Sequence record: OX638288
Strand: one strand, 5' to 3'
DNA from: Escherichia phage UP19
Length of the DNA: 64,000 bases
Part shown: piece after piece, positions 1-16,680 of the stretch
Layout of the letters: each line of letters begins with the position of its first letter
Position numbering within the stretch: position 1 is the stretch's first letter
Made by a program: the position numbers and the translations under genes
The notes under the pieces: model-generated
What the model saw: the letters and a program-made list of their open reading frames with translations, nothing else
What the model was told of the DNA's origin: nothing
Databases searched by the model: none

Positions 1-1429
1 GTCGAACGTTTGCCATATTATAATAGGTTTCATCGCCACCTATATTGACTTTATTATTACCACCAACATAAGTATTAGAATCGCCTTGGGTCATATAATA
101 CCCGTCGGCTACTGTCTTAGAAGTTTTACGTCCGTCAGGAGCGACTTCTTCGTAACTACCTGTAGGGTGGATTAATCGGTAACGTTCTTGCCCTGGGGTG
201 TTATCGAATTCTTGGATATGCCCACCTTCAGTTTGCATGGTTTGGACATATGGGTATTCGCCTTTATAACTAGAATCCGGCTCTTTAAAAAGAATCCTTG
301 TATCTTCCGGAGTCCATGGGTCGGCTGGGTCGGAATTTGCAGGAGCCGCAAAGGTTTGAATCATCCTATACGAACGTCCTTTAAATTCTCTTTCTTTAGG
401 GGCCATAATACCGTATGATTCCATATTACCTGTAAGGATAATCATTGATACCCTTGAGGCACGACCCTTAGTTTGGTTAAACCACACTGAATTACGAGCT
501 TCCTCAAATGCCTTTTTATAATCGCCTATTAGCATTGCACTGAGCATACCACGGAATTTAGCAAGCCCACCTAAACCCATTTGGAAAGCCATGTTTTCAA
601 GAGCCATTTGTCTTGAACGGTTTTCTTTATTGTAAACAGGACCTACAACACTATGCCTGCCTATATCGTTTTGAACTTTTTTAAGGTCTTCTTGGAATAA
701 TTTAGAAGCCTCGTCCATTGATATTGCACCAGGGTTTCCTTTAACTTCACGACCTATTTGATTAGATAATATTTTGTTTATCTGGGTCATATCTCTAATA
801 GGTTGTGGTGTAATAAGGTGACCTATACCAATAGTAGGATATCCTTCGGTGTCCCAATATACCTTCAGACGAAGACCCTCATCACGATGAAGCATGTTTT
901 CTATTGTGAAATTAGGATTATCATCAGGCTTAACTTGGCTTAAATCTAATCCATCCGGATTAATACCTACATCAGTGTTTGCATCTTGTATTACGTTAGA
1001 AGCGGCATCATATCCAACTTCGCCACCTCGGTTTAGTGCAGCGGCATCATTACCTAAATAAAGCGGATACTGTCCTGTTGGGTCACTAAAACCTTCGTTT
1101 GGATTTGCCTTTTGTTTTGAAGCCGAACCGTATGTACCGAGGACAAGCCCGTTTAATTTCCACTTATCAAGAAAGTGTCCGTAAACTTGTGTACCCGGGA
1201 CCATACCGGTCATAGCGGTTTGGATACCTGAAACCGAGGCAGAAGATGTAGGCATTAATACCGACATCCATGGTAAATCTTCTGTACGAAGGCCTTTTAC
1301 AGGACCTTGTACTTTTTCATATGGATGCATACCCCAGACGCGTACGCGTACTCGGCCCTGTTTGAGTGGGTCCATTCGGTCTTCAACTACACCGACGAAC
1401 CAACTTAAATTATCAGACATGTTAATCAT
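1..1429 (-). CDS. 5: baseplate hub subunit / tail lysozyme gp5, N-terminal part (gene runs off the window start)
   Basis: Minus-strand ATG at 1427-1429; translation starts MINMSDNLSWFVGVVED, like T4 gp5 N-terminus; open to position 1; absent from ORF track because no stop inside window. Confidence 0.85.
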   Translation of the reverse strand, partial: MINMSDNLSWFVGVVEDRMDPLKQGRVRVRVWGMHPYEKVQGPVKGLRTEDLPWMSVLMPTSSASVSGIQTAMTGMVPGTQVYGHFLDKWKLNGLVLGTYGSASKQKANPNEGFSDPTGQYPLYLGNDAAALNRGGEVGYDAASNVIQDANTDVGINPDGLDLSQVKPDDNPNFTIENMLHRDEGLRLKVYWDTEGYPTIGIGHLITPQPIRDMTQINKILSNQIGREVKGNPGAISMDEASKLFQEDLKKVQNDIGRHSVVGPVYNKENRSRQMALENMAFQMGLGGLAKFRGMLSAMLIGDYKKAFEEARNSVWFNQTKGRASRVSMIILTGNMESYGIMAPKEREFKGRSYRMIQTFAAPANSDPADPWTPEDTRILFKEPDSSYKGEYPYVQTMQTEGGHIQEFDNTPGQERYRLIHPTGSYEEVAPDGRKTSKTVADGYYMTQGDSNTYVGGNNKVNIGGDETYYNMANVR

Positions 1430-4027: not shown

Positions 4028-4780
4028 TGAAACTAATATCAATTGTAGGAATCAAACGTAGCGGTAAGGATACCGTTGCTAACTATGTAATTGAGAATAT
4101 GGATTCCGTAAAATTCCAACTCGCCGGTCCTATTAAAAAGTATCTGGCTGAAGCTTATGAATACATATCTGATGACCCTGTATTCGACCGTAGCTATATG
4201 CCTAAACTTGATTTTAACTGTTTTGAAGGTATCGGTTATGACCGTGAAGAAATCATTCCTTTAAAACCATATGATGTTATTGATATTTTTGAAAATGCTA
4301 TTGTTAAGCTGAATAATATCCTTCCTATTCCCGGAATTGATGTTCGTACCGCATATCATTATGGTCTTACCCCGGTCCAATATCTGTCTGAAGAAACAAA
4401 AGACCAGCTATTTGAAGTAATAAATAAAAATAACAATTGGTCAGTACGTCGTCTCATGCAGACCCTTGGGACTGATATTATTGTTAACCAATTTGATAAG
4501 ATGTATTGGGTTAAGTTGTTCGCTTTAGACTATTTTGATAAAATATACTCTGATGCGAAATACTATGTCGTACCTGATGTTCGTCAAACACATGAAATTG
4601 ATTCGCTCAGAGCGATGGGTGCTACGATTATTCATGTAGTTCGCGCTGAAACCGGTCAAGTACAAGACTCGCACATCACTGAAGCGGGTCTACCAATTTT
4701 ACCTGGTGACGTTGTTGTTGAAAATAACGGCACTCTTTCTGAACTATACACTACTATTGATAAATTATTAGGAAATAAAA

Positions 4781-4788
<8 letters not shown>
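4027..4788 (+). CDS. 1: deoxynucleoside monophosphate kinase gp1
   Basis: 253 aa; P-loop VGIKRSGKDT; ...WSVRRLMQTLGTDIIVNQFDKMYWVKLFALDY... like T4 gp1. Confidence 0.9.
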
Positions 4789-5687
<899 letters not shown>

Positions 5688-5698
5688 TTTAAAAAAGG

Positions 5699-5741
5699 TG
5701 TTTACAAGGTCTATAGACATGATACTATAGGCCTATCAAAA
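5699..5741 (+). promoter_or_regulatory. early promoter / stem-loop cassette (PeSL-like)
   Basis: GTTTACA, 16-17 nt spacer, TACTAT, then conserved core tataggcctatcaaaac; member of a repeat family. Confidence 0.6.
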
Positions 5742-5765
5742 CAAACCAACCACATGGAAATCAAA

Positions 5766-5990
5766 ATGAAAACTTATCAAGAATTTATTACAGAAGCTAA
5801 AAAACACGAAGACCAACTGCCGGTTGTTACAAAAACCTTTGACGGTACATTGGCCGATTTTAAAAAAGTCCCTAGTGATAAGCTCGCTAAATTGGCCGGG
5901 AGTATCGGTGAAAAAGATGGCAAGGTCACGTTTTCTGCTCAAGGTACAGCCAATCTTAAAAAACTTTTGAAAGCCGCTGGCGCAGAATAA
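5766..5990 (+). CDS. internal-protein-like protein (CTS MKTYQEFITE)
   Basis: ATG 5766 after SD ggaaa; N-terminus MKTYQEFITEA; position equals T4 ipI locus. Confidence 0.65.
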   Translation: MKTYQEFITEAKKHEDQLPVVTKTFDGTLADFKKVPSDKLAKLAGSIGEKDGKVTFSAQGTANLKKLLKAAGAE

Positions 5991-6333: not shown

Positions 6334-6519
6334 ATGAAACGTTGTGAATTAATTAGAAATGTTACTGCACTGGCCGCCGTTACTGCTTTTGGCTTTAGTA
6401 TGTTTGCAGGATTCATGTTGGATTTGCTTACAACTTCCGAGAATACAATCTCTTTAGTAGTGGCATTCTTAATTGGTTCAATCTCTTTCGTTATGGATAA
6501 AATCTCTAAAGGTGAATAA
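6334..6519 (+). CDS. small membrane protein
   Basis: ATG 6334 with SD ggaga; 61 aa, two hydrophobic helices. Confidence 0.55.
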   Translation: MKRCELIRNVTALAAVTAFGFSMFAGFMLDLLTTSENTISLVVAFLIGSISFVMDKISKGE

Positions 6520-6920
6520 TGAACGTTGAATATTATGTATATGCGGATTACGAAAATAATCCGTCTAAAGATGAAGATAACCGTTTAGGTGTAGATGCTT
6601 TTGAATCCCCTGCAGCGGCATGGCAATGGGTTGAAAGAACCGATATTCCTTACCGTTATATTGAAGTGGTCGACCACGCAGGAAACAAGTATCCTAAGGA
6701 AGCATATGTTCCTTCCGGAAAGGTAAATTTCCTTTTGTTTGCGGGTGATAATTATTATCCACGTGGCGGGTATACCGATTTAATCGCTAAGGCATTTTCT
6801 GAAGACGAACTACGTAATATCGTTAAAGATAATGAGAATAAGCCTCGTTACGGTTCTAATCGTTTTGACTGGTGGCAGATTGTTAATGCTAATACCCACA
6901 CTATTGTAGACGAGGGTTAA
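6519..6920 (+). CDS. hypothetical protein
   Basis: 133 aa ORF; ATGA overlap with upstream stop. Confidence 0.5.
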   Translation: MNVEYYVYADYENNPSKDEDNRLGVDAFESPAAAWQWVERTDIPYRYIEVVDHAGNKYPKEAYVPSGKVNFLLFAGDNYYPRGGYTDLIAKAFSEDELRNIVKDNENKPRYGSNRFDWWQIVNANTHTIVDEG

Positions 6921-9177: not shown

Positions 9178-9795
9178 ATGAAAACTTACAATGAATTTTT
9201 GAACGAAAGCGTTCTGAATGAAGCCGGCGTGCGCATGACTAAAGATATGTGGCAAGCTGCTTATGATAAAATTTCCGGGACTAAAACCACTACCGAGTTC
9301 TTTAAAAACGTTTATGATATGTATGGTTTTGATACTAGTAGCCAGAAAGAATATTACAAAGCTTCCAAAGCTTTTAAAGATATCGTAGCCGGTGGCTCTA
9401 CTAAGCCTGCTAAACCAGCTAAAGCTCCTGTTTCTAAACCCGCGGCTCAGACCAAAGTTGCAGCACCGAAACCTACACCTAAAGCAGAGCCTGTAAAAGA
9501 AGCTCCTAAACCTAAAATCAAGTTCGACACCAGCACTATTGTTAAAAAATATAACCAGCTGGCTTCTTTAGTGTCGGAAATCGAATCCGAAACTAAACAA
9601 CTTGTTCGAGAATTCAATGTTCTTCGTAATGGTCAACACATTAACAACCTAGATACCCCGGACCTCTATCGTCTTTACCTGACGGTTGAAGGCCTTAAGT
9701 ATACCCAGCCTATGCACGAAGAAATTGATAACAAACTTCGTCAAGCCCGCCGCCTTGCAGGTGACGCCGCTCAGTTCGAAAAGACCCGTAAATAA
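9178..9795 (+). CDS. internal-protein-like protein (CTS MKTYNEFLNE) with basic Ala/Pro/Lys-rich linker
   Basis: 205 aa; N-terminus MKTYNEFLNES; KPAKPAKAPVSKPAAQTKVAAPKPTPKAEPVKEAPKPK low-complexity segment; late promoter upstream. Confidence 0.65.
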   Translation: MKTYNEFLNESVLNEAGVRMTKDMWQAAYDKISGTKTTTEFFKNVYDMYGFDTSSQKEYYKASKAFKDIVAGGSTKPAKPAKAPVSKPAAQTKVAAPKPTPKAEPVKEAPKPKIKFDTSTIVKKYNQLASLVSEIESETKQLVREFNVLRNGQHINNLDTPDLYRLYLTVEGLKYTQPMHEEIDNKLRQARRLAGDAAQFEKTRK

Positions 9796-9800
9796 TGAAA

Positions 9801-9820
9801 GGAGACTTCGGTCTCCTTTT
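9801..9820 (+). terminator. rho-independent terminator (UUCG tetraloop)
   Basis: ggagac-ttcg-gtctcc followed by tttt. Confidence 0.7.
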
Positions 9821-9854
9821 AGGGGGTTTAATCTAAAAATAATTTCACAAAGTT

Positions 9855-9895
9855 GTTTACACCTCCTTTAAACGTGATACTATAGACCTATCAAA
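9855..9895 (+). promoter_or_regulatory. early promoter / stem-loop cassette (PeSL-like)
   Basis: gtttacacctcctttaaacgtgatactatagacctatcaa; upstream cctcctt complementary to downstream SD aaggagag. Confidence 0.6.
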
Positions 9896-9918
9896 ACAAC
9901 AGAGTGAAGGAGAGTAAA

Positions 9919-10182
9919 ATGGATAATTATGGTGAATTGTTTAATTTCTTTATGAAATGCGTTCCTGAAGAATTTGGTGCTACAGTAAACGATATTAAAG
10001 TTATAGGTGATGACCATCCTATATTTGAAACTTACGCAGTAATGGGTAATGACGATGGGCAGTGGTATACCGTAAAGGTTGTGGTTAATATGTTTGCTGC
10101 TGAAGGGTACGTTAAATTGTCGACCAAAGTTTATCACGATAATGATTTTGATGCGGAAGATTATTTCAATAATATGAAATAA
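9919..10182 (+). CDS. hypothetical protein
   Basis: ATG 9919 after SD aggaga; 87 aa. Confidence 0.55.
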   Translation: MDNYGELFNFFMKCVPEEFGATVNDIKVIGDDHPIFETYAVMGNDDGQWYTVKVVVNMFAAEGYVKLSTKVYHDNDFDAEDYFNNMK

Positions 10183-10184
10183 TT

Positions 10185-10221
10185 GTTTACAACCCTCAGA
10201 GGACAGGGTATAATGTCCTCA
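10185..10221 (+). promoter_or_regulatory. sigma70-type early promoter with -10 inside inverted repeat
   Basis: GTTTACA-17 nt-TATAAT; gaggacag/tgtcctc inverted repeat flanks the -10. Confidence 0.6.
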
Positions 10222-10257
10222 TGGATTACAAAATACCAACCAACTGAAGGAAATACT

Positions 10258-10851
10258 ATGAATACTTTAAAGAAAATTGTTGAGTTCATCCGTTCTAAAC
10301 TGGGTACCGCAATGACTCAGAACCTGTCAATTGAAGACCAGTATACTAAAGCTGCTTCTACCCTGATTGATAAAATTACCGAACTTCAGACTGCTCATGT
10401 TAAGTCGGTGAATGAAGAAAAACGCATTCGTGCATTGGCAAATGAAAAAGACCAGCTCGCTGCTTCTAAAGAACGTGAAATTCGTAAACTGATTAAAGAA
10501 GGCGCCGATGTTCAGGTGCATGCTAAACTAGGCCTCCTTTATCGTCGTACCGCTAATCAACTTCGTAAGAAAGCAGACGATTATATCGAAATGCGTAATG
10601 AAATTAAACTGAAGGTCAAGGAACTTGATGACTCTCGTCAAGAACTGGCTGTTAAGCTCGAGTACATCCGTGAAACTCGTAATATGGCTGCCCTTGGTAT
10701 TGCTACTGCCGATGATGTGGTTGAAATCGCTGCACTGACTAAGATTGATATTGAAGATACCCTGCTGCGTGTAGAAACGTTTAAAGGCCCACAAGTTGGA
10801 ATGGATACGACTTCAGCTGATATCGAAGACTACATTAATTCACTTAAGTAA
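10258..10851 (+). CDS. coiled-coil protein, PspA/IM30-like (tentative)
   Basis: 197 aa predicted all-helical; heptad-rich; layout and N-terminal amphipathic segment resemble PspA-family proteins. Confidence 0.5.
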
Positions 10852-10857
10852 TATTAC

Positions 10858-10880
10858 CGGGAGACTTCGGTCTCCCTATT
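10858..10880 (+). terminator. rho-independent terminator (UUCG tetraloop)
   Basis: gggagac-ttcg-gtctccc followed by tattt. Confidence 0.6.
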
Positions 10881-10899
10881 TGGAGGAGAGGAGAATATT

Positions 10900-11442
10900 A
10901 TGAGTTTATATGATAACCTTATATCAAATATTGATTGGTTTAAAAATAGTGGTCTTTCCCATGAAACCAATTCAGTTCTTTATAGAATTCGCCAAGACCT
11001 AGGCTATTCAAACGATTTCTTAAGCAGAACATCTAGCCGTGGCGATACTACCAAATTACCTTTTATTTTTGCTTTAGCTGAAGACCTTTCTTTTGAAGAT
11101 GCTTTGGAAATTATTGACGTAAATCTGACTATTCAACGAGTGGAATTCGCTGGACTACGTTATTCAGTATATTCTTTAAATGAGAGCGATGATTGTGTGC
11201 TTCTTAATATGGCAGATGATGATTACCATTTAGTATGCTATGTGGCTTTAGAAAATGGTGATGTATTTGGAATGGTCGACCGTCGACCATCTTACACTGA
11301 TATTAAAAATTATGATAAAGCCGAGCTTGGTATCTTAACTGCTGAGTACACATTAGAAAGTCGTAAACAACAACGGAAGCTTAATCGCTTTATTGCTGAA
11401 TGCCGTGAATACGCTAAAGAGGTTCAAAATGGAACGGCCTAG
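10900..11442 (+). CDS. hypothetical protein
   Basis: 180 aa; SD ggaggagagg upstream; C-terminal ...LNRFIAECREY motif shared with two other ORFs. Confidence 0.55.
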   Translation: MSLYDNLISNIDWFKNSGLSHETNSVLYRIRQDLGYSNDFLSRTSSRGDTTKLPFIFALAEDLSFEDALEIIDVNLTIQRVEFAGLRYSVYSLNESDDCVLLNMADDDYHLVCYVALENGDVFGMVDRRPSYTDIKNYDKAELGILTAEYTLESRKQQRKLNRFIAECREYAKEVQNGTA

Positions 11443-11782
11443 TCTTTCATCGCATGTTTATCAATTGGCTGAATATGATATTGCTATTTCCTTATTCACG
11501 GGAATTGTCACAGGTATGCTCGGCGGTCTGGTTGGTCTGGTAATGACCACAGTTATGGCTGCAATCGAAGGAGTCATGCCTATTGAGATGGGTTTCTATA
11601 TGATAATCGCTCCGGCTGTCGTGGCTTATTTTATCCCTCTTGTGTATGATATTTGCCATACAAATGCTTTGAATGCTCCCATCCGTAAGAGATATGCTTT
11701 AGAGATGGCTAATTATAATGAGTATGTAAAACAAACCAAACGTAATGACCTTGAAACCTTTATTAAGGAATGTAAATCATGA
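11429..11782 (+). CDS. small membrane protein
   Basis: ATG 11429; 117 aa; two TM helices; ends ...LETFIKECKS. Confidence 0.5.
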   Translation: MERPSLSSHVYQLAEYDIAISLFTGIVTGMLGGLVGLVMTTVMAAIEGVMPIEMGFYMIIAPAVVAYFIPLVYDICHTNALNAPIRKRYALEMANYNEYVKQTKRNDLETFIKECKS

Positions 11783-12069
11783 ATAAAATTGAAATTGAAA
11801 TCCCTGAATACAACGACGAGAAATCTGCAGAAAAAGCTATCTATGCTCTTCTGAATAAAGTAGATACCATCGAACATGAATGTGAAGCTATTGCTGATAA
11901 GTACGGTATTCAATTCGGAACAGGTGATTATGGCTCAGGACGTACATACTACCCTGTTGGTTATGAATGCTCCCAGTGGTTTAAAGATGAAATTGAAAAC
12001 AATGGTGGTGAAGTTGAAAATGGCGTCGTTACAGTTGGTGCCTGGATCTCCTCTTCAGCATTATGCTAA
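11779..12069 (+). CDS. tandem paralog family member A (C-terminal W-x-SSS-x-C)
   Basis: 96 aa ending ...GAWISSSALC; first of five consecutive paralogs. Confidence 0.6.
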   Translation: MNKIEIEIPEYNDEKSAEKAIYALLNKVDTIEHECEAIADKYGIQFGTGDYGSGRTYYPVGYECSQWFKDEIENNGGEVENGVVTVGAWISSSALC

Positions 12070-12078
12070 GGAAACGCT

Positions 12079-12360
12079 ATGATGAATGATAATCATAACC
12101 ACCCAGAGCTTCTGGCCGCAGTAAAAGAAATTCATGAAGCTATTCGTCGTGCCGAGGAAATTGCAGACAAATATGAGACTCATTTTAATATATACCCTGC
12201 TCGCGGTATGGGCGGTGACTATTATTCTCCTGGCGCCCTGAAAGCTGACCTAGCCCACTGGGAAGAAGATGGTCATCCTGAATGGGCTATTGTTAATACT
12301 CATGACTATACAACTGACCTGGAAAATGGTGGTTGGGTGTCCTCTTCTTCTGAATGTTAA
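12079..12360 (+). CDS. tandem paralog family member B
   Basis: 93 aa ending ...GGWVSSSSEC; shares IADKY and GDY motifs with member A. Confidence 0.6.
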   Translation: MMNDNHNHPELLAAVKEIHEAIRRAEEIADKYETHFNIYPARGMGGDYYSPGALKADLAHWEEDGHPEWAIVNTHDYTTDLENGGWVSSSSEC

Positions 12361-12369
12361 GGAAATATT

Positions 12370-12567
12370 ATGTCTCGTGAATTAGATTGTGCAATCCGTA
12401 CTGCCGCCGCGGCTATTGAAAACGTTATCCAGATTTGCAAAGAAGAACGTGAAGAAGCTGATATCTATATCGATGGTGTTCGTGACCTGGAACGACATAT
12501 CACGCTTTACAATGGTTGTATTACAATTAGTGGTACCTCTTGGGTGTCCTCCTCTTACGAATGCTAA
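12370..12567 (+). CDS. tandem paralog family member C
   Basis: 65 aa ending ...TSWVSSSYEC. Confidence 0.6.
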   Translation: MSRELDCAIRTAAAAIENVIQICKEEREEADIYIDGVRDLERHITLYNGCITISGTSWVSSSYEC

Positions 12568-15173: not shown

Positions 15174-15860
15174 ATGAACAGCCCGAAAACTTTTAATTCC
15201 AAAGCTCGTGCAGTGGGTAGTTTTGCCGGTAAAATTTCTAACGATAAAATCAAAAACGAAACTATGTTCTTCAACAGCTCATTGGCTTTCGCTTTTGATA
15301 ATGGTGGCCCTATTACTCGCAGCTTCATCATGAACCTGCCGGATGATTGGAACACTGACCAGGTTGTATTTGATTCTCGAGTTCATATGCTTATGCCTGG
15401 TTGGTATCCTGCTATCCCAGGTTATCACCATGATGATGTACCACGCCCGGATATTCCGGTTGGTCAACACTTTATTACCGCAGGGCAACCTGATTATGAT
15501 AATCCTCGATACCATTCTGAACATATTCTTGGTCTTGTTAACGCTGATGTGTGTCCTACTTATTTTGCAACCGGAACTGCACAATTTAGCCAGATTCCTG
15601 AAGGCGAACTTATCTATCGCCAGTGGCATAAAGAAGTTCTGGAAAAAATTGAGTCCAATGAATTAACCAAGTGGGATGCTCCTGACCGCACATTGCTCCA
15701 GTTTGATTGGCAGACGTGGCATACTGGTTCTCGTGCAGTAAGTAATGGCTGGCGCTGGTTTGGTCGTGTGTCCCGTAATACCGACCGTGTTAAAAAGATT
15801 ACAAATGAAATCCGCGTTAATGCTCAAGTATATCTGGAATTCCCTATGGAGGGCTGGTAA
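15174..15860 (+). CDS. hypothetical protein; possible 2OG-Fe(II)-oxygenase-like H-x-D...H...R-x-S arrangement (weak)
   Basis: 228 aa; YHHDD then later WHTGSRAVS; assignment by eye only. Confidence 0.5.
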   Translation: MNSPKTFNSKARAVGSFAGKISNDKIKNETMFFNSSLAFAFDNGGPITRSFIMNLPDDWNTDQVVFDSRVHMLMPGWYPAIPGYHHDDVPRPDIPVGQHFITAGQPDYDNPRYHSEHILGLVNADVCPTYFATGTAQFSQIPEGELIYRQWHKEVLEKIESNELTKWDAPDRTLLQFDWQTWHTGSRAVSNGWRWFGRVSRNTDRVKKITNEIRVNAQVYLEFPMEGW

Positions 15861-16447
15861 TGGCCCTTTATGAACCTGGTTGCATGGGTGTTGATGTAAA
15901 CTTCATCCGTCGGTCAGAAAATGCCGGAATCATTATCCCAAGTGGTGAACATATGATTATTAAAAAGTCCTGGCGAAATATTGATGATGGGGATGAAGGA
16001 ATTTCAGCCAGTACAATAGATTGGTCAGGTTGTACTGCTGAAATGAAACAACTTTTAATTGAGGAATATAAAATGGGCTATATCGTAAATGGTTGGCAAC
16101 CAGAACCCCATAAAGAACAGACACCAGACCCATTGATTTGTTATAGCAAAAAATACGGCTTTCGTACATGGAGTGATGAATACGACAAATTAGTGAGTTC
16201 TAGGTTCTATGTTTGGATGGGGATATTATTTTTCCCACTCCTAGGGTTTTTCCTGACAACGGATAATGACTTACCTATTAGTGTGTTTGCTTCAGCGATG
16301 TCGGCGGCAATCTTAGGGCTTATTGCATCATTTTTATGGACTGCAGTTATTGAAGTACCTTTTCGTATTTCTAAAGTTAAAAAGGTGTATGACGATATCA
16401 CTAAGAAAAATGCATTAAACTCTTTTATTGAGGAATGCCGTAAATGA
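15860..16447 (+). CDS. membrane protein
   Basis: 195 aa; C-terminal TM helices; ends ...LNSFIEECRK. Confidence 0.55.
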   Translation: MALYEPGCMGVDVNFIRRSENAGIIIPSGEHMIIKKSWRNIDDGDEGISASTIDWSGCTAEMKQLLIEEYKMGYIVNGWQPEPHKEQTPDPLICYSKKYGFRTWSDEYDKLVSSRFYVWMGILFFPLLGFFLTTDNDLPISVFASAMSAAILGLIASFLWTAVIEVPFRISKVKKVYDDITKKNALNSFIEECRK

Positions 16448-16680
16448 GTATTGCGATTTATATTAAATCCGAGTCATGCGATTCTTATCTGTATTCCTAT
16501 GACACCGGAACATCAGAAGAGAAAATCAAAGAAGATTTAGAAACCGACTTGGATATGTTCCGTCCTATTTCTGACTATATGGTCCAAGTGTCTGATAGTG
16601 AAAGCCCGTCATTAGAAAATAGACTTGAATTTTTAATGAGCGATATTTTTAACCAATCATGGAAACGTGATGATGAGTAA
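16444..16680 (+). CDS. hypothetical acidic protein
   Basis: 78 aa ORF overlapping neighbours by 4 and 14 nt. Confidence 0.5.
   Translation: MSIAIYIKSESCDSYLYSYDTGTSEEKIKEDLETDLDMFRPISDYMVQVSDSESPSLENRLEFLMSDIFNQSWKRDDE

Follow-up and report, generated by a model that had tools for sequence, protein, structure and literature searches.

Bacteriophage T4 is the best-studied lytic phage, and about half of its genes have no known function. The subject of this analysis is the e.6 gene on a stretch of 64,000 nucleotides (nt) from Escherichia phage UP19 (sequence record OX638288), called "the window" in the following. Its source is a Dhakavirus, a genus of JS98-like T4-type phages. Proteins of the e.6 family form the cluster phrog_1203, which includes T4 e.6, gp163 of phage Metamorpho, and Gp_125 of Kuttervirus SeF3a, and their likeness to PspA has been described before. 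The genome announcement of Metamorpho reported for its T4 e.6 homolog an HHpred match of 99.9% to PspA 4WHE_A (PMC7862958), and a Salmonella-phage study called a phrog_1203 protein a PspA homolog and proposed a role against abortive-infection (Abi) systems (PMC9409062). A large study on the evolution of phage-shock protein systems does not discuss phages, and no experimental work on the function of e.6 was found in the literature. The PspA homology of e.6 orthologs is already published and not novel in itself; possible novelty lies in the function of e.6 and in its possible link to neighboring genes that share a C-terminal motif.

Sequence profiles and a structural model support the placement of the window protein, highly divergent and shortened, in the PspA/IM30/Vipp1 branch of the ESCRT-III superfamily. 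With a probability of roughly 60%, it is the Dhakavirus ortholog of T4 e.6 acting as a cytoplasmic, divergent PspA-branch protein that protects the inner membrane in early infection. An earlier interpretation made from the nucleotide sequence and its open reading frames (ORFs), here the sequence-only reading, had proposed such a PspA/IM30-like coiled-coil protein, encoded by an independent unit between an early promoter and a terminator. The gene and the parts of its product are as follows; pLDDT is the predicted local distance difference test of AlphaFold2.

10246 to 10251, plus strand: Shine-Dalgarno sequence GAAGGA, 6 nt upstream of the ATG, read from the sequence
10258 to 10851, plus strand: coding sequence of the T4 e.6 ortholog (phrog_1203), 197 amino acids, ATG at 10258 and TAA at 10849 to 10851, assigned by orthology and the PspA evidence
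10261 to 10323, plus strand: helix alpha0, residues 2 to 22, cationic and amphipathic, presumed to bind membranes (hydrophobic moment and profile alignment; low AlphaFold2 confidence)
10330 to 10692, plus strand: coiled-coil hairpin with alpha1 (residues 25 to 80), tip EGADV (81 to 85), and alpha2/3 (86 to 145), from pLDDT, conservation, hhalign, and Foldseek
10708 to 10845, plus strand: short C-terminal helices at residues 151 to 162, 165 to 173, and 186 to 196, from AlphaFold2 (low to medium confidence) and conservation

Relationship of e.6 to PspA and Vipp1

The region from 9800 to 11500 shared 99.9% identity with Escherichia phage EcWhh-1 and 95.8% with JS98, in which the ortholog is annotated as "e.6 conserved hypothetical protein." T4 e.6 (NP_049742) also has 197 amino acids and is placed between e.7 and e.5. 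The window protein matched phrog_1203 (function unknown) from end to end, with an E value of 2.8e-83 and residues 1 to 197 on profile positions 1 to 199 of 200. Homologs were found by tblastn in 1110 phage records, with identities of 73.6% in T2/T4-type phages, 62 to 65% in Klebsiella phages, about 54% in Aeromonas phages, and about 32% in Pseudotevenvirus. The order e.8, (e.7), e.6, and e.5-like gene is that of T4-type genomes, and AAGGAAATACTATG at the Shine-Dalgarno site is conserved in JS98 and T4.

Three other assignments were discarded. A longer ORF with a TTG start at 10183 would take in the −10 box of the promoter, and the homologs begin with MNTLKK. The label "host specificity protein" on some records is unsupported, the gene being early and the protein cytoplasmic and helical without features of a tail fiber. 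Weak matches to Rz-like spanins or LysB (E values of 0.2 to 0.5) were taken as coiled-coil noise. A partial e.6 homolog of 140 amino acids with 63% identity (P0050) is filed at NCBI as Xanthomonas campestris on a contig of 526 bp, most likely a phage contamination of that assembly.

The AlphaFold2 model, computed from an alignment of 35 sequences, had a mean pLDDT of 75 and placed 168 of the 197 residues (85%) in helices, at positions 3 to 22, 25 to 80, 86 to 145, 151 to 162, 165 to 173, and 186 to 196. The pLDDT was 85 to 97 for the hairpin from residue 25 to 145, whose two helices have about 56 and 60 residues, and below 50 for residues 1 to 21 and 163 to 184. The enrichment of hydrophobic residues at the heptad positions a and d was 0.41, compared to 0.28 ± 0.035 in shuffled sequences, and none of the 300 shuffles reached the observed value. 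The hydrophobic moment of residues 2 to 19 was 0.46, compared to 0.42 for E. coli PspA and a family median of 0.41, and the hydrophobic face of alpha0 at residues 4, 7, 8, 10, 11, 15, 18, and 19 used the same positions as in PspA. The net charge of alpha0 was +3 (0 in PspA) and mostly +3 or +4 across the family. An almost entirely helical build, a heptad pattern, and an N-terminal amphipathic segment, all read before from the sequence only, were thus borne out.

Conservation was strongest in the hairpin, at residues 88 to 98 and in the block KLEYIRETR (133 to 141). The C-terminal part contains the conserved blocks RVETF and ADxExYLxSLK. Solely in the greedy mode did hhalign pair RVETF with FESFE of PspA and the C-terminal SLK with ...QLAQLK, and alpha4 and alpha5 were separated there by a gap of about 20 residues. 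It is possible, judging from this alignment and the model, that the C-terminal helices are the equivalents of alpha4 and alpha5 of PspA with about 20 residues missing.

The relationship to PspA was evaluated with hhalign, using an alignment of 75 sequences of the e.6 family and a PspA/IM30 alignment. A shallow PspA profile composed of Enterobacterales sequences and Synechocystis Vipp1 gave a probability of 83% and a score of 41.5. A homolog search and a contig scan for PspA returned only Enterobacterales proteins of at least 78% identity. The profile was diversified with PspA/IM30 sequences from Bacillus, Paenibacillus, Actinomyces, Pseudarthrobacter, Sphingomonas, Proteus, and Nostoc, the diverse sources being tblastn against plasmids and the PDB alignment of Synechocystis Vipp1. 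With this profile, the probability was 94.6%, the score 54.7, and the P value 7e-8. Residues 1 to 141 of e.6 were aligned to residues 1 to 136 of PspA, collinear from residue 1 onward, and the tip of the hairpin was in register. In the controls, reversed profiles scored 21 to 22 (2 to 3%), column shuffles 10 to 16, shuffles in blocks of 7 columns 13 to 21, and shuffles in blocks of 21 columns 24 to 44. Helix alpha0 alone scored 23, with residues 1 to 21 on 1 to 21 of PspA, and the remainder with the hairpin 26 to 29 (reversed control, 16). Both parts contributed about equally to the score and with matching coordinates. A comparison of this type had been set as the test of the sequence-only reading, and its result was positive; the outcome that should have refuted that reading, no hit to the PspA family, did not occur.

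A bridge between both families was provided by two proteins, P0074 and P0069, which scored 39.0 and 35.1 bits on the Pfam model PspA_IM30 with its gathering threshold of 33.9. The e.6 profile matched both over their full length with E values of 1e-18 and 5e-21, respectively, and the window protein was 27% identical to P0074 (BLASTP E value, 2e-11). These most PspA-like relatives of e.6 are located on Ackermannviridae-like metagenomic and IMG/VR contigs of about 156 to 160 kb (L098, L100, L101, and L135). Their genes lie between one for a DnaB-type helicase and one for a DNA ligase, and the next encoded protein has an N-terminal transmembrane segment and a C-terminal ESILA[NR]AR tail.

Comparison of structures pointed to the same branch. 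When the model was searched with Foldseek against PDB, Vipp1 was the first and accounted for seven of the nine best matches; archaeal CdvB2 filaments were also listed. Superposition on the hairpin of the Vipp1 chain 6zvs_A gave a root mean square deviation of 2.9 Å over 123 columns and a template modeling score of 0.71, normalized to the target. In the BFVD database, Foldseek found five members of the e.6 family, followed by the "PspA/IM30 family protein" of Acinetobacter phage ME3 and Snf7 of Megaviridae.

Several results weigh against the assignment to the PspA branch and need to be considered at this point. The AlphaFold2 confidence for alpha0 was below 50, and the E values of the Foldseek matches in PDB were only about 1e-2. 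When tested alone with hhalign, the hairpin reached a probability of just 20 to 34%, and the C-terminal third (0.4 to 3%) had no significant similarity to the PspA profile. No Pfam match to PspA_IM30 or Snf7 at an E value of 10 or below was obtained for the window protein and 34 close homologs. None of the NCBIfam models for the PspA family (TIGR02977 and NF007974) or LiaH matched the window protein; as a positive control, E. coli PspA scored 444 and 306 bits. Searches of PDB with phmmer and hmmsearch yielded only noise, as did BLASTP of the window protein against E. coli PspA. Genes similar to pspB, pspC, or pspF were not present near e.6, where the neighbors are e.8, e.5-like, e.3-like, and other phage ORFs.

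A search with the e.6 profile through 1.84 billion representatives retrieved only 46 proteins. Every one belonged to the e.6 family, the complete ones had about 195 to 209 amino acids, and canonical PspA was not reached. The blanks in Pfam, NCBIfam, PADLOC, and PDB show that sensitivity at the level of HMMER was insufficient and not that the relationship is absent. With the hhalign result, the two relatives that pass the Pfam threshold, the Vipp1 matches of Foldseek, and the homology reported by HHpred in two papers, the PspA/IM30-like nature of the protein is supported.

The e.6 transcription unit and the genes downstream

The promoter and the hairpin that flank e.6 are the following.

10186 to 10214, plus strand: early sigma-70-type promoter, −35 box TTTACA at 10186 to 10191, spacer of 17 nt, −10 box TATAAT at 10209 to 10214
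10859 to 10876, plus strand: intercistronic hairpin GGGAGAC-UUCG-GUCUCCC with the tail UAUUUGG, conserved after e.6

With 11 of 12 matches, the promoter was by far the best site found by a promoter scan between 9000 and 12500. A G precedes the −35 box and completes the T4 early-type sequence GTTTACA. The promoter is identical in JS98, and T4 e.6 has GTTTACA-17-TATTAT at the same position; in a published time course, T4 e.6 was classed as "early-RNA_middle-Protein" and the protein was detected (PMC9697503, supplements). The early promoter is convincing. No promoter-like site was found before e.6 in phages 44RR2.8t and phi5, in which the gene abuts the upstream ORF.

The interval upstream of e.6 is variable. 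JS98 contains an additional ORF of 399 nt, orf133, between e.8 and e.6 (6441 to 6839 of its locus, L001), and T4 has e.7 there. The window and EcWhh-1 possess neither of them between 10183 and 10257, and the e.6 promoter directly follows e.8. Further upstream, an ORF of 205 amino acids at 9178 to 9795 (orf135 of JS98) encodes a low-complexity linker rich in Lys, Pro, and Ala, KPAKPAKAPVSKPAAQTKVAAPKPTPKAEPVKEAPKPK. It is followed at 9798 to 9826 by a hairpin, AAAGGAGAC-UUCG-GUCUCCUUU, which the terminator scan rated as terminator-like on the minus strand only.

Six phages from five genera were inspected (the window, JS98, T4, 44RR2.8t, FBB1, and phi5), and in each of them a GC-rich hairpin with a UUCG, UCCG, or GAAA tetraloop comes after the stop codon of e.6. 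The stems differ in sequence, with compensatory changes at five of the seven pairs. The terminator scan did not call the hairpin at 10859 to 10876, its U-tract (UAUUUGG) is weak, and the local fold was unexceptional compared to shuffled sequences. The hairpin may be a weak terminator, an attenuator, or a stabilizer of the 3' end of the transcript rather than a full terminator, as judged from its sequence. The terminator proposed before is a conserved and covarying hairpin. The next ORF begins 49 nt past the e.6 stop codon and has its own Shine-Dalgarno sequence but no promoter of its own. Since the hairpin was not called as a terminator and the downstream ORF has no own promoter, the postulated independent unit is not established, although e.6 does have its own early promoter. 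An early unit that has e.6 as its leading cistron and a hairpin for attenuation or stabilization is more likely.

The proteins encoded downstream have a C-terminal motif in common, F-[IV]-x-x-C-[RK], which was scored in the terminal 35 residues of each ORF. The genes concerned are given below, with those of T4 for comparison.

10900 to 11442, plus strand: first downstream gene, 180 amino acids, phrog_8788, soluble product, positional counterpart of T4 e.5; FIAECR encoded at 11392 to 11409
11429 to 11782, plus strand: second downstream gene, overlapping the first, 117 amino acids with two predicted transmembrane segments, T4 e.3 family phrog_2330; FIKECK encoded at 11759 to 11776
15860 to 16447, plus strand: gene for an e.2-like membrane protein, 195 amino acids; FIEECR encoded at 16424 to 16441; third and last motif ORF of the window
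5163 to 5771, 4802 to 5194, and 4458 to 4820 of the T4 locus L092, minus strand: e.5, e.4, and e.3 of T4, respectively, which bear the motif (e.4 in a relaxed form)

The JS98 ortholog of the gene at 15860 to 16447 is annotated as e.2. In 40 loci, the order was constant: the e.6 stop codon, 40 to 55 nt with a hairpin, a gene for about 180 to 260 amino acids, and an overlapping small gene. The first downstream genes belong to different PHROGs. Their Karam-, Jiaoda-, and Roskilde-like versions are related with hhalign probabilities of 94 to 96%, and the Dhakavirus version is linked more weakly to these (36 to 51%). All first downstream proteins in Straboviridae end nevertheless in the motif, with the tails RFIAECRE in the window, KFVKECRE in T4 e.5, and DFINYCRG, EFIKHCRE, LFVDYCRR, RFINMCRE, DFIKECRY, or KFIHSCKK in others. 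The membrane proteins have the tails TFIKECKS* (e.3-like) and SFIEECRK* (e.2-like) in the window and EFVIDCRK (e.3) and KFVKESRC (e.4) in T4. In the Ackermannviridae-like contigs, a variant of the motif contains Ala instead of Cys, and the first downstream protein has an N-terminal transmembrane segment.

The motif was specific for this region. It occurred in only three ORFs of the window, all in the stretch from e.6 to e.2. Of the 409 ORFs in the complete T4 genome, e.5 and e.3 alone carried it, joined by e.4 when the pattern was relaxed. In 31 IMG/VR loci, none of 168 ORFs upstream of e.6 but 60 of 219 downstream carried it. Single-protein scans of viral sequences gave 33 loci (L103 to L135 among the motif loci). 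An RNA signal that happens to be translated was considered as the sole explanation and is less likely. The codons for Arg switch between CGT, AGA, CGA, and AGG, other genera have various residues before Cys, and the stop codon is not at a constant distance, which makes a constraint at the protein level more likely. In the e.3-like (11759 to 11782) and e.2-like (16424 to 16450) genes, the codons for K/E-E within the motif contain AAGGA and GAGGA, respectively, 9 nt before the next ATG, and the following genes overlap the stop codon as ATGA. In these two genes, the same bases would encode the protein motif and provide a Shine-Dalgarno sequence for translational coupling.

The two-transmembrane proteins possess C-terminal tails rich in Lys and Arg, which are for this reason probably cytoplasmic, where e.6 would be located. 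No similarity of the downstream neighbors to PspB, PspC, or PspD was found. By analogy to PspC for PspA and LiaI for LiaH, the arrangement suggests that the neighbors with the motif may be adaptors or clients of e.6. A tentative extension of this idea, rated clearly below even odds, is that e.6 acts as the effector in a "Psp-like module" specific to phages, together with the e.5-like protein and one to three two-transmembrane proteins of the e.4/e.3/e.2 type, all tagged by the motif. In such a module, the motif would lie in a short cytoplasmic C-terminal helix and could dock the neighbors to a PspA-like polymer or recruit the polymer, parallel to PspC or LiaI. The conserved hairpin after e.6 would set the ratio of expression between the effector and the adaptors. 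If true, the phage would own a system for membrane surveillance and repair.

Three small ORFs in tandem at 11779 to 12069, 12079 to 12360, and 12370 to 12567 (96, 93, and 65 amino acids) share another tail, W-[IV]-S-S-S-x-x-C, with the sequences GAWISSSALC, GGWVSSSSEC, and TSWVSSSYEC. These ORFs seem to form a small family of paralogs, and a downstream ORF of another locus (L124) is closed by the similar tail WLSSSDMC.

Possible functions of e.6

The sequence-only reading had suggested two possible roles for a phage-borne copy, stabilizing the inner membrane of infected cells and interfering with the phage-shock response of the host. In the mechanism proposed here, e.6 would be synthesized within minutes of infection and would bind to the cytoplasmic face of the inner membrane by its cationic amphipathic alpha0. 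Polymerization through the hairpin, as known for PspA and Vipp1, would seal or stabilize the membrane and limit the leak of protons caused by the injection of DNA, by superinfecting particles, by membrane proteins of the phage, or by Abi effectors that target the membrane. This would keep the proton-motive force and avoid a premature lysis by holins triggered by depolarization. The soluble and membrane-bound proteins with the motif encoded downstream might serve e.6 as adaptors or clients, which is speculative. T4-type phages shut off host transcription. The host psp operon, which depends on sigma-54 and PspF, should not be inducible after infection due to this shutoff, and this is a plausible reason for a phage-borne effector under the control of an early promoter.

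An early protein of the PspA/ESCRT-III type would be a membrane-maintenance factor carried by T4-like phages. It bears on the resealing and repolarization of infected cells after DNA injection, on the safeguarding of lysis timing and lysis inhibition against accidental loss of the proton-motive force, and on the resistance of phages to Abi systems that depolarize the membrane. The e.6 gene is short, nonstructural, and located in a genetically tractable phage, so these hypotheses are directly testable.

Alternatively, e.6 may be a dedicated counter-defense protein, which neutralizes Abi systems that permeabilize or depolarize the inner membrane, such as those of the Rex type, instead of serving a general upkeep. 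This was proposed for phrog_1203 in the Salmonella-phage paper (PMC9409062) and is mechanistically compatible with all of the homology evidence. The gene is early, resides among accessory genes, and has a patchy distribution (4 of 15 Kuttervirus genomes in PHROGs), as is typical of anti-defense genes. The near-universal presence of e.6 in Tevenvirinae of Enterobacterales and Aeromonas (1110 records) fits better with a core physiological role, however, and no experimental link to counter-defense was found in the literature. PADLOC gave no credible match, which is uninformative because its models describe defense and not anti-defense proteins. On balance, a specialized anti-Abi function seems rather unlikely.

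The hairpin of E. coli PspA is the PspF-binding domain (4WHE), and e.6 has kept the hairpin. It could be a regulatory mimic that binds PspF and/or PspBC of the host and silences or hijacks the phage-shock response without acting on the membrane. An identity of 10 to 13% across the hairpin makes the conservation of a specific interface for PspF unlikely, the early shutoff of host transcription would make repression of a sigma-54 operon redundant, and the conserved amphipathic alpha0 with its cationic shift argues for direct contact with the membrane. Mimicry of this kind is improbable.

A third explanation assigns to e.6 a remodeling of the envelope, leading to superinfection exclusion or to altered adsorption or injection, and complementing Imm and Sp. 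In Klebsiella pneumoniae, a truncated gain-of-function PspA of the host impaired the adsorption of phages and led to loss of the capsule (PMC12234005), and e.6 resembles PspA, is short by nature, and is made early. The analogy is nevertheless indirect, since the effect in K. pneumoniae came from the loss of the capsule over generations and not within one infection cycle. A remodeling function is very improbable.

A generic coiled coil or BAR-like helical bundle with an unrelated role and only convergent resemblance to PspA has as little probability, being disfavored by the hhalign controls and by the Pfam bridge through P0074 and P0069, and neither sequence or profile similarity to BAR, I-BAR, or F-BAR domains nor their dimeric crescent was found. 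Protection of the inner membrane by a PspA-branch protein remains the preferred interpretation of e.6.

Comparison with known systems

The window protein and T4 e.6 do not differ substantively. They are equal in length and are both located between e.8 and an e.5-like gene.

E. coli PspA (PF04012; 4WHE, residues 1 to 144) and e.6 have the order of elements in common, from alpha0 over the hairpin with its tip at about residues 80 to 85 to short C-terminal helices. In the alignment, AKLGLLYRR of e.6 corresponds to LARAALIEK of PspA and KLEYIRE to KLSETRA, with the identity of 10 to 13% across the aligned hairpin mentioned above. With 197 compared to about 222 amino acids, e.6 is about 25 residues shorter, with the gap of about 20 residues in the alpha4-alpha5 region described above, and it lacks the AEDP junction motif of PspA. 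Its alpha0 is cationic (+3) instead of neutral. Expression of e.6 starts from an early sigma-70 promoter, whereas pspA is transcribed from a sigma-54 promoter controlled by PspF, and the phage gene has no pspBCDE neighbors as they exist in the enterobacterial Psp system. A pspA gene 92.8% identical to that of E. coli K-12 was observed on more than 400 plasmids, most of them conjugative, in Klebsiella, Enterobacter, Citrobacter, Salmonella, and E. coli, indicating that the host Psp effector itself is widely mobile.

A PspA-like effector that adjoins small membrane proteins is known from LiaH-LiaI in Bacillus and PspA-PspBC in enterobacteria, and the surroundings of e.6 are similar in this respect. 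The Lys/Arg-rich C-terminal tail of the phage two-transmembrane proteins of the e.4/e.3/e.2 type could recruit e.6, an interaction that is purely hypothetical. The sequences of E. coli PspB, PspC, and PspD examined contain no counterpart of the motif F-[IV]-x-x-C-[RK], which sets the phage proteins apart from them.

Vipp1/IM30 of cyanobacteria and chloroplasts (7O3W, 6ZVR, and 8QBW) belongs to the same superfamily and provided the best Foldseek matches in PDB. It is longer, with about 260 amino acids and an additional C-terminal helix compared to the 197 residues of e.6. Its experimental structures are open and polymerized, whereas the AlphaFold2 model of e.6 is a closed monomer. Virus-encoded members of the superfamily also include the PspA/IM30 protein of Acinetobacter phage vB_AbaM_ME3 and Snf7 of Megaviridae. 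Both are recognizable as such from their source annotation, but their Foldseek E values to e.6 were only 4e-2 to 6e-2. This indicates that e.6 represents a separate and much more divergent phage lineage of the superfamily.

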